64,000 nucleotides of DNA from Candidatus Heimdallarchaeum aukensis (lineage in GTDB: Archaea; Asgardarchaeota; Heimdallarchaeia; Heimdallarchaeales; Heimdallarchaeaceae). The position numbers and the translations under genes were made by a program. Within the stretch, counting starts at the first letter, position 1. Each line of letters starts with the position of its first letter. Shown here piece by piece: positions 56,282 through 59,200 of the stretch. Location of the stretch: NCBI GenBank assembly GCA_021513695.1, contig CP084166.1, positions 2,176,001-2,240,000 on the forward strand. Direction: 5' to 3'. The notes below the pieces were generated by a model, which was not told the origin of the DNA, made no database searches, and saw only the letters and a list, made by a program, of their open reading frames with translations.

Positions 56282-59200
56282 GTGACAGAAGTAGATAACA
56301 ATCAAGAAAAAATTATCAGAAAACCTTTAACTCAAACACTTGAAGAGGCATATAGGGATTATAGTCATTATGTAATAAGCGAAAGAGCTATCCCTGACGC
56401 AAGAGATGGGTTAAAACCAGTACATCGCAGGATATTGTGGGCCATGCATCAAATGGGGTTAACATATAACAAACCTCATAAGAAATGTGCGAGAATAGTA
56501 GGCGAGTGTTTTGTTGAAGGAACACTTGTGAATACAGTAGAAGGACTAAAACCCATAGAGAAGATTATGATCGGAGAGGAAGTATATACACAAAATGGCT
56601 TACAAAAAGTCACACAGTTGTATGAGCTTCCAGAAAAACCTCTTTATACAATTGAATTGGAGAATGGCTTGAAAAATGTATGTACTGGTGGTCAAAAATT
56701 TAAGGTATTTACAGAAAATCTAAAATATGAATGGAAACGAGCAGATGAACTAAAACAAGGCGATTATATAGTTTGTAGTTCAAAAATTAATTTTTCTAAT
56801 GATTATGTGTCTGTTAATGGACTTGCCATCGATGAGGATATGGCTTATTTATTAGGTGCCTTTTTAGCTGATGGGTGGATTGACAGAAGTAGCAGAGGAT
56901 ATCACAGAATATCTTTTTCATCAGAAGCAAAAGAAGTTCTAGAACACATTATGCAAATAATTAAAGAAAAGTTCGGGAAGTCTGAAAATATACTCTTCAA
57001 AGATGTTTATTACTTGCGTATAAATGAACATCAATTAAATCAGAAACTAATTGAGACCTTCAACCTTATGGATAAGTATTCTTACAATATAAGCGTTCCT
57101 CAACAAATCTTTATGTCCCCCAAAAGCGTTGTTTTTTCATTTATTAGTGGCTTTATTGATGGCGATGGGCATATTCATAAAGATCGAAATGAAATCGCGA
57201 TCTATTCTGTGTCAGAGGAATTCTTGAGAGAGTTGCAAATTCTTTTATTTGCATTGGGCATAAATTCTAGCTTCTATCTCCATAGAAAAAAGGATGTTCA
57301 ATATAAAAATGGAAAGAAATCAAACTATGATTACTATGTTCTTGAAATTCGAGGAAAATATGCCTCTGATCTCTCCAAAGAATTGACACTGTATAATAAA
57401 AAGAAGCAGATTCGGCTTGAAAAAACAGATAATTTCCTACCTTCTAAAATGGATGAGATACCTTATATTGGAAAATATATTTTCCAAGAATTTTCAGAGA
57501 AACATTTAGGCGGAGGCTGGTATTTAAGTAAAACGGGAGAAAAAGTTAGAGCGGGAATTAAATATTCCGATGGAACTAAAATCAGATATTCTAAAGATTT
57601 AAAGGAAAATGTTAGAATATATAAAACTAATATTGAGCAGCTAAATATTCTAAAGAAAATGGAATTAATAGACTCTAAATATCTTGACTTGGTTAAATAT
57701 ATTTTGAATAATAACATCTATTTCATCAAAGTTAAAAGTGTAGCTAACTCAGTTGCAAAGAAAACTTTTGATATTCAAGTTGAAGAAGATCATGAGTTCA
57801 TAGCTAATGGAATGGTTTCTCATAACTGTACAGGTAAATACCACCCGCATGCTGGTGGTGTTTATGAAGCATTAGTTCGGTTAGCTCAACCTTTTTCACT
57901 TAGATACCCTATAGTTGATGGACAAGGAAATTTTGGTTCAATTGATGGGTTCCCTGCTGCAGCAATGAGATATACAGAAGCTCGTCTTGCTAGAATAGCA
58001 AATGAATTGTTGGAAAATGTTATACCTGAAATTGTCAAGTTTCAAGAGAACTTTGATGGCGAAGAAATGGAACCTACTGTTTTACCAGTTAAGTTCCCAC
58101 TGCTTCTAGTAAACGGAACAAGTGGGATAGCAGTTGGTTTGAGTTCAAACATTCCTCCTCACAATCTACGTGAGGTTATAGATGCTACTGTCGCTTTAAT
58201 AGATGATCCTAATGTTCCTGATGAAACTCTTTCATCGATAGTAAAAGGGCCTGATTTTCCTACAGGAGGAATTATTGTCAATGGAGCTTCTATGCCTAAT
58301 TACAATTTGACTGGTAAATCACCTATAATTATACGTGCTAGAATAGATATTAAAGAACCAACAGAAAAAAGAGATTATGCTATACTTGTTGTAACAGAGA
58401 TACCTTACTTAGTAAATAAATCAACACTTATGGAAGAGCTACATGACATAATATATGAGAAAAAGATTAGGGGATTGAGTGATGTAAGAGATTTATCAAA
58501 AGATAAGATCCATATAGAAATAGATGTAGAACCGGATTATTCTCATGAACGTAGTTTAAGAGTTATTATTAGTCAATTATTGAAGAAGACTCAACTTGAA
58601 AAGCCTTTTTACGCAAAAAACATGGCTTTTGCAAGAGGAAGACCAAGGTTGCTGAATCTGCGCAGAGCTCTTCAAATATTCTTAGAACATAGAGAATATG
58701 TTATTACAAAAACAATCAAGCATCTTTTAAGTAAGGCTTTAATGCGATTACACATATTAGAAGGATTATATATAGCTCTAAACAATATTGATGAAGTTAT
58801 CTCAATAATCAAAAAATCAGAAGACAGAAGTGATGCTCAAGAAAAATTAATGAAAAGATTCGATTTAAGCGAATCCCAAACAAAAGCTATACTTACAATG
58901 CAACTTGCACGTTTAGCTAGAATGGAAGTAGAATCAATAATTAACGAAAAGAAAGAATTAGAAAAGAAGGTAGAAGAATATAGAGAAATATTAGCTAGTA
59001 AGCAAAAACGTATGGAAATAATTAAACAAGAATTGTTGGAAATAAAAGAAAAGTACGGAGATGAAAGAAGAACAGACATAATAACTGATGTTGAGATTCC
59101 TATAGACGCAGACGTTTATGAAATGTTGCACGACCGATATTTACTTATTACTGCTTCTGAACAAGGTTACGCAAGATCTATTGATATTTCAAAATTTAAG

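Follow-up and report, generated by a model that had tools for sequence, protein, structure and literature searches.

A LAGLIDADG intein with a block-B glutamine at a second insertion site in the gyrase A gene of Candidatus Heimdallarchaeum aukensis

The gyrA gene of the Asgard archaeon Candidatus Heimdallarchaeum aukensis, located in a 64,000-nucleotide stretch of contig CP084166.1 (assembly GCA_021513695.1, positions 2,176,001 to 2,240,000 of the forward strand; hereafter the window, numbered from its first letter), is interrupted by a 440-residue intein. We read this element as a class-1 intein, functional and mobile, that encloses a double-motif LAGLIDADG nuclease and is inserted at a site distinct from that of the catalytic tyrosine; on the sequence evidence we give this reading a probability of roughly 0.8. 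Relatives at the same site occur in archaea and bacteria, and they share with the window intein a glutamine at the place of the canonical block-B histidine.

Results

An intein interrupts the gyrA reading frame

The features of the locus, with window coordinates, are the following.

56282..60091, plus strand: gyrA, a single open reading frame (ORF) of 1269 aa with a GTG start
56282..56506, plus strand: N-extein of gyrA, residues 1-75, ending in KKCARIVGE; residue -1 is Glu75 (GAG, 56504-56506)
56507..57826, plus strand: intein, 1320 nt or 440 codons, GyrA residues 76-515, CFVEGTLV to GMVSHN
56507..56806, plus strand: N-terminal Hint lobe with blocks A and B; Cys1 at 56507-56509 (TGT)
56684-56686, 56693-56695 and 56702-56704, plus strand: block-B codons of Thr60 (position B7), Gln63 (position B10, CAA) and Lys66, respectively
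56807..57454 (approximate bounds), plus strand: LAGLIDADG nuclease domain (Pfam LAGLIDADG_3)
56846-56875, plus strand: LAGLIDADG motif 1, LLGAFLADG, intein residues 115-123; catalytic Asp122 at 56870-56872
57140-57169, plus strand: LAGLIDADG motif 2, ISGFIDGDG, intein residues 213-221; catalytic Asp220 at 57164-57166
57455..57715 (approximate bounds), plus strand: extra region, about 90 aa, following the nuclease and preceding the C-terminal splicing strands
57716..57826, plus strand: C-terminal Hint lobe with blocks F and G; Asp422, His429, His439 and Asn440 (57824-57826)
57827..60091 including the stop codon, plus strand: C-extein of gyrA, starting at the +1 residue Cys516 (TGT, 57827-57829)
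54157..56271, plus strand: gyrB, no intein; its Pfam domains are seen in an identical Logan contig

The gap between gyrB and gyrA is 10 nt, and the arrangement is that of a gyrB-gyrA operon. Excision of the intein in silico yields a GyrA of 829 aa that is colinear with the intein-less homologues of Heimdall archaea. In the Pfam annotation the DNA_topoisoIV domain (E=7e-134) is cut in two by the insert, and DNA_gyraseA_C, with its β-propeller repeats, is also present. The insert itself matches Intein_splicing (73 bits against a cutoff of 35.8, E=3e-20), LAGLIDADG_3 in two stretches (E=1e-19), Hint_2 and Hom_end, while TIGR01443 (intein_Cterm) matches the C-terminal lobe. On neither strand does the intein overlap another ORF of 100 aa or more. 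A second gyrA was not seen in the window, nor were further inteins among the ten other large window ORFs that were scanned. The exact same protein was found only on Logan assembly contigs, from run SRR15988958.

A preliminary description of this DNA, made from the sequence alone, had proposed a 440-aa LAGLIDADG intein at these positions of a 1269-aa GyrA, with unmutated catalytic residues and with a colinear GyrA restored by removal of residues 76-515. The ORF, its translation and Pfam all agree with this proposal: the coordinates are exact, both LAGLIDADG motifs were found, and Cys1, Asn440 and the +1 Cys are intact. The same description credited the element with all intein hallmarks, which is correct for Cys1, the terminal HN, the +1 Cys and the two LAGLIDADG blocks. 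It does not hold for block B, where the histidine is replaced by Gln63.

Residue conservation was counted over 77 family members from a genome scan (described below). The features of a class-1 intein outside block B are all present in the window intein, namely Cys1, the Asp and His of block F, the penultimate His, the terminal Asn and the +1 Cys. C1, T60, Q63, D220, D422, H429, H439, N440 and the +1 Cys are invariant (77/77). The other nuclease aspartate, D122, is Asp in 74 members and Glu in the remaining 3, and both motifs of the window intein carry an acidic residue at motif position 8, as in double-motif LAGLIDADG nucleases.

An AlphaFold model of the intein, computed with the family alignment as input, reached a pLDDT of 83.8 and a pTM of 0.85. 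Its best matches in the PDB, as ranked by Foldseek, are TliVMA (7qss, E=3e-22), PI-PfuI (1dq3), PhoVMA (7qst) and PI-TkoII (2cw7), followed by PI-SceI, with E values from 3e-22 to 1e-11 and TM scores of 0.47-0.65. The resemblance of the model to intein structures and the Intein_splicing match together identify a Hint fold. With these solved inteins the window element shares an architecture in which the Hint domain is split by a double-motif LAGLIDADG nuclease and an additional subdomain. In contrast, its sequence identity to the solved archaeal inteins is only 11-22%, and these reside in different host genes.

The extra region between the nuclease and the C-terminal lobe is marked by the motifs EIPYIGK, HLGGGWY and KIRYSKDL, and its invariant residues include H333, G335, G337, W338, Y339, R348, K358, R360 and Y361. 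No sequence match to this region of about 90 aa was found in Pfam, NCBIfam or the PDB; matches to uL24, with E around 0.3, were dismissed as chance. Judging by the extra subdomains that PI-PfuI-type inteins have, the region is probably a DNA-binding subdomain similar to a "stirrup".

A GyrA insertion site shared by archaea and bacteria

The intein lies between Glu75 and the +1 Cys, at VGE/C(T)GKYHPH, in the winged-helix part of GyrA that includes the quinolone-resistance-determining region (QRDR). This VGE/C junction (the slash marks the extein–intein boundary) corresponds to what we take to be D72/V73 in E. coli numbering, the mycobacterial site being presumably Y122/T123. The catalytic tyrosine of the AAMRY motif is residue 564 of the full-length product. 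The insertion had been described as about 45 residues upstream of this tyrosine and as possibly an allele different from the mycobacterial AMRY/T one; it is indeed upstream and different, but the distance in the spliced protein is 49 residues.

Like the mycobacterial GyrA inteins (Mxe, Mle and Mka, allele GyrA-a), the window intein is a class-1 element in GyrA with Cys1 and a penultimate His. The similarity to Mxe GyrA (1am2) is otherwise weak and restricted to the splicing blocks (E=1e-5). Mxe is a mini-intein with TANH in block B, whereas the window intein is full-length, with a LAGLIDADG nuclease, and has TxxQ. The +1 residue of the Mxe intein is Thr, compared with Cys in the window. With the NCBIfam model NF038098 (GyrA_w_intein), which represents the tyrosine-site type and has a cutoff of 1850 bits, the window protein reaches 674 bits, the intein segment aligning weakly. 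The site, this score, the weak similarity to Mxe and the full length together rule out a mycobacterial-type allele.

We scanned one genome per GTDB species with the intein-family alignment and found relatives in at least 157 species-representative genomes. The VGE/C allele is thus distinct but not rare. From these genomes 80 loci were retained, and the junctions are identical in all 80: VG[ED]/CF…HN/C[LMT]G[KN][YF]HPH. In a separate protein search, 17 of 20 GyrA fragments include one junction or both, and each of these has the same site. When 1.84 billion cluster representatives were searched exhaustively, about 35 family clusters (at 50% identity) were recovered, beyond which the scores fall steeply to generic LAGLIDADG inteins in other proteins. 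The shared junctions, the number of clusters and the drop in score indicate a distinct and well-populated GyrA insertion allele that is not specific to one genome.

We define this VGE/C-GKYHPH family by the same junctions, a homologous intein of at least 37% identity over 440 aa, a TxxQ block B and the HLGGGWY…KIRYSKDL region, all of which are found in the window intein. The family spans about 20 phyla, about 15 of them bacterial. Archaeal carriers are Heimdallarchaeota, Promethearchaeota, Woesearchaeota, Nanoarchaeota, Micrarchaeota, Thermoplasmatota, Methanophagales and Methanosarcinales. Bacterial carriers are Persephonella, Desulfurobacteriaceae, Armatimonadota, Omnitrophota, Elusimicrobiota, Patescibacteria/CPR, Planctomycetes, Rhodothermales, Bacteroidota, WOR-3, Stahlbacteria, Bipolaricaulota and Desantisbacteria. 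The nearest relative comes from Candidatus Heimdallarchaeum endolithica PR6 (L002, a complete genome); its intein is 91% identical to that of the window, and the GyrA proteins as a whole are 95% identical.

Many GyrA genes of family carriers contain a second intein of about 360-500 aa. The classical site, AAMRY/C, at the mycobacterial tyrosine position, is filled in L004, L010, L011, L020, L035 and L059, and a third site, GQGNFG/C, in L015, L051, L073, L076, P0013 and P0019. At least three homing sites thus lie within about 50 residues of GyrA, and a single gene sometimes has two of them filled.

Several relatives are reduced or degenerate. P0018 has Gly1, lacks the terminal HN, ends in SST and is a dead copy; the 369-aa intein of P0017 has lost the second LAGLIDADG Asp, the nuclease is deleted in P0020, and the inteins of L078 and L018 are shortened to 411-423 aa. 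Judged from these sequences, the stages of decay are those expected of a homing cycle.

The family alignment was also used to scan IMG/VR, where no family member was found; the matches are generic inteins with at most 29% identity over long alignments, and a viral vector for the family is accordingly without support. Full-text literature searches turned up neither an account of a GyrA intein at the VGE/C site nor a report of Gln at B10. A survey counted 50 GyrA inteins in Actinobacteria, Aquificae, Chloroflexi and Proteobacteria, the text of that count giving no sites (Novikova 2016, PMC4760082), and 23 intein-containing archaeal GyrA sequences were removed without description from a gyrase study (Villain 2022, PMC9348778).

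Empty sites, selection and transfer

The existence of intein-less alleles in related genomes, which the preliminary description had left to be checked, is borne out by at least 25 clusters of intein-less Heimdallarchaeaceae GyrA proteins of 827-845 aa, recovered with the spliced exteins as query and 73-79% identical to them. These alleles read from ARIVGE directly into the C-extein, with one variant reading GE-T-TG. In the empty allele of L082 the DNA across the junction is AGAATAGTAGGGGAAGTTACAGGAAAATACCATCC, which matches the joined window exteins at 59 of 72 nt and has GTT (Val) opposite the TGT of the +1 Cys. Intein-containing relatives exist at the same host divergence (L003 and L004, C-extein 75-79% identical). 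Since empty and filled sites occur side by side at equal divergence, the presence of the intein is patchy, as expected of a homing element.

In the comparison with Ca. H. endolithica, the ratio of nonsynonymous to synonymous substitution rates (dN/dS) is 0.13 for the intein, 0.14 for its nuclease and 0.08 for the extra region, and every subdomain is under purifying selection; the exteins have values of 0.02-0.03 (0.03 for the C-extein). Conserved degenerate codons differ in 15% of cases in the intein against 26% in the exteins (Fisher p=8e-6; window against L002 2776-6585), and the synonymous divergence is minimal in the two splicing lobes that adjoin the junctions. This suggests that the two intein copies have a more recent common ancestor than their host genes.

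Horizontal transfer was assessed against the 400-aa C-extein; an 86-aa flank proved uninformative as a test of extein identity, being 70-85% identical in nearly all GyrA proteins. Relative to Promethearchaeota, the intein is 55-56% identical and the C-extein 45-48%; relative to Persephonella, the values are 55% and 42%. Among close relatives the intein diverges faster than the extein (91% against 97% identity). In a neighbor-joining (NJ) tree, computed without support values, inteins of archaea and bacteria are interleaved: Asgard inteins group with Persephonella, those of Thermoplasmatota with CPR, and those of DPANN with Elusimicrobiota, Stahlbacteria and Omnitrophota. The relationships among these sequences fit repeated horizontal transfer, to which transfer of the gyrase gene itself may have contributed.

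The same data bear on an explanation in which splicing is active but the homing nuclease is immobile, so that the intein would be a fixed passenger handed down vertically. Within lineages, such as the Thermoplasmatota, Omnitrophota and Asgard clades, the inteins form a coherent tree, and the window shares its intein with Ca. H. endolithica at 91% identity, as would be expected of such a passenger. The GC content of the intein (0.31) is also like that of the window and genome (0.32), and a foreign composition, having been considered, was dropped for lack of any anomaly. Against this explanation, both catalytic aspartates are kept and the nuclease and extra region are under the purifying selection described above. 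The element is patchy in Heimdallarchaeaceae, with many empty sites; its synonymous divergence is below that of the host gene, and its identity exceeds that of the extein across phyla and domains. We regard a fixed passenger as unlikely.

Block B has a glutamine in place of the histidine

Block B of the window intein reads NVCTGGQKFKV, with T60, Q63 and K66. In phmmer alignments Q63 stands opposite the block-B histidines of gp41-1 (CSEEH), Mxe GyrA (GTANH) and PI-PfuI (TSPWH), the last being the only one of the solved full-length inteins above for which this position was aligned. Of the class-1 signature TxxH, the Thr at B7 is therefore retained and B10 is Gln. At the K66 position, 70 of the 77 family members have Lys and 5 have Arg. 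The cluster representatives of the family comprise 31 with Gln at B10 and 3 with His, compared with 88 His and few Gln among the other inteins of the same match list.

The members with His belong to a divergent Campylobacterales subgroup (P0012 and P0014), in which block B reads TRGHKF and residue -1 is Asp. P0012 has Gln in place of the penultimate His (ISQN/C), and both form deep branches in the midpoint-rooted NJ tree. A block B of the form T/S-x-x-Q is also seen in P0112 (residue ~912), P0079 (~153) and P0101 (~725), whose hosts are multi-intein proteins other than GyrA and which are similar at the N-terminus (CFVGKTLVST…WKRADEL). The Gln-type block B is thus not restricted to GyrA, and these sequences hint at a broader mechanistic subclass.

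The block-B His has been described as more conserved than any other intein residue and as essential in every intein tested. Arth_1007, which has Asn at B10 and is the only other natural case outside CDC21, is a dead pseudogene (PMC3196547). In other inteins, the N-terminal reactions are abolished when the B10 His is lost. Read in this light, and with the plainly decayed relatives P0018, P0017 and P0020 in mind, the window intein could be splicing-dead or decaying after loss of its histidine, and would then be a permanent insertion in GyrA or reside in a non-functional gene.

Several findings speak against such a dead intein. Gln63, C1, T60, D422, H429, H439, N440 and the +1 Cys are fixed in 77 of 77 members across two domains of life, which is not the pattern of a decaying element. 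The intein evolves at a dN/dS of 0.13 within an intact gyrA that lies beside gyrB, has a C-extein dN/dS of 0.03 and is the only gyrA seen in the window. The insert also sits in helix α3 of the DNA-gate winged-helix domain of GyrA, where 440 additional residues are very unlikely to be tolerated. A dead intein is in our view very improbable. The strictly conserved Gln, the signs of purifying selection and a host gene that is itself intact and conserved instead argue that these inteins splice with Gln at B10.

A Gln side chain cannot shuttle protons, although it can form hydrogen bonds, as donor or acceptor, with the scissile peptide or the oxyanion. Acting with Thr60, Lys66 and Asp422/His429, the Gln63 amide presumably puts the scissile bond under strain or polarises it, or else stabilises the tetrahedral intermediate. 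Thr60, Lys66 and the Asp and His of block F are candidates for compensating the missing His.

A partial parallel is the Tko CDC21-1 intein, likewise a conserved natural lineage that lacks the B10 His, presumably splices and has a basic residue nearby, Lys58 in its case (PMC7765530). The two differ in host and site (MCM/CDC21 for Tko CDC21-1), and the window intein is not detectably closer to it in sequence. The compensating Lys of Tko CDC21-1 is orthologue-specific and lies outside the standard motifs, whereas K66 is inside block B (position B13). Tko CDC21-1 is confined to Thermococcales, whereas the GyrA family, with its invariant Gln, extends over about 20 phyla. The mechanism involving Q63 is presumably analogous to the Lys compensation of Tko CDC21-1 and not identical with it. 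The literature surveyed on His-less inteins lists only two groups and does not describe a Gln-type block B. We tentatively propose, at somewhat less than even odds, that the VGE/C inteins of GyrA are a large, ancient and still-mobile class-1 lineage, undescribed in the literature, that carries out the N-S acyl shift by means of an invariant Gln.

Other features of the locus

Just downstream of the intein, the window GyrA reads HPHAGG (57842-57859, residues 521-526), a variant of the usual QRDR sequence GKYHPH-GD[ST]A-VYD that is one residue shorter and has nothing equivalent to D82 and S83 of E. coli. This variant recurs in intein-less Heimdallarchaeaceae GyrA proteins, in Heimdallarchaeota LC_2 and in one metagenome-assembled genome labeled 'Methanobacteriota'. 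As it also occurs in intein-less proteins, it is a trait of the clade that is unlinked to the intein. The variant may affect quinolone sensitivity.

GyrB ends in a long acidic tail (window 56170-56271). From the first GTG its ORF encodes 704 aa, compared with 666 aa for the gene called in the Logan contig, which makes the true start uncertain.

Directly downstream of gyrA, an ORF of 627 aa (60131-62014, plus strand) is rich in Lys and Glu, has an N-terminal P-loop-like motif (GINAMVAENAKGKT) and, judged by eye, is probably a coiled coil. It has no Pfam match at 1e-5; the identical Logan contig splits it into two genes, one of them with SMC_N. The predicted protein may be an SMC/Rad50-like ATPase. 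It is not found at the corresponding position in the intein-less relative L082. Elsewhere in the window, an ORF of 598 aa (19544-21340, minus strand) matches no Pfam family at E<=1e-5.

Discussion

We propose the following course of events for the window intein. The gene would be translated into a precursor of 1269 aa, in which Cys76 (Cys1 of the intein) would attack the Glu75-Cys76 peptide bond in an N-S acyl shift. This first step would have to be activated without the canonical block-B His, at a position where the family has an invariant Gln. The N-extein would then be transferred onto the +1 Cys516, cyclisation of Asn515 would release the intein, and an S-N shift would complete the GyrA of 829 aa. 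The nuclease of the freed intein would cut intein-less gyrA genes around the junction of GTAGGGGAA and GTTACAGGAAAATA, and repair from the intein-containing allele would insert the element, turning the Val codon of the empty site into the codon of the +1 Cys.

Besides the fate of other inteins without the B10 His, several points weigh against a functional and mobile intein. Splicing and nuclease cleavage are deduced from conservation, and the roles of Q63 and K66 from sequence. The last 12 residues of the structural model have a pLDDT below 50. That gyrase is essential is an assumption for this organism, archaea also possessing Topo VI. Effects of composition or codon use could partly explain the lower synonymous divergence of the intein. 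Finally, our tree has no support values, and gyrase has moved between domains (PMC9348778) and could have carried inteins along.

The position of the insert and its unusual block B could also suit a conditional intein, in which a His-less element with Cys1 and a +1 Cys serves as a post-translational switch of gyrase, responsive for example to redox state or temperature, and is not purely selfish. As the insertion falls in the helix-turn-helix of the DNA gate and QRDR, the precursor must be inactive. A disulfide between Cys1 and the +1 Cys is possible, and a weaker residue at B10 could render the first step rate-limiting and tunable. Conditional splicing has been documented in other inteins of replication proteins (PMC6195587, PMC4513877). 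The support for a switch is circumstantial, however, and selfish homing alone accounts for the conserved nuclease and the patchy distribution; we consider a switch rather improbable.

Inteins favor replication proteins, and an intein in gyrA is as such ordinary biology. The VGE/C allele, already present in hundreds of public genomes and unremarked, documents a second homing site in GyrA, inside the quinolone-resistance-determining helix-turn-helix. This site is common to Asgard archaea, DPANN, Thermoplasmatota and many bacterial phyla, which makes it a marker of gene flow between domains, and its intein is a caveat in the alignment and annotation of archaeal gyrases.

The invariant Gln at B10, of which we found no report in the literature, is the feature most worth following up. 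Coming after Tko CDC21-1, the family would, if the proposed mechanism is true, represent a third natural route to splicing without the His, and much the most widespread one. Should its members splice, they would provide a natural and diverse test bed for a first splicing step without His acid-base chemistry, and could become a new scaffold for intein engineering.

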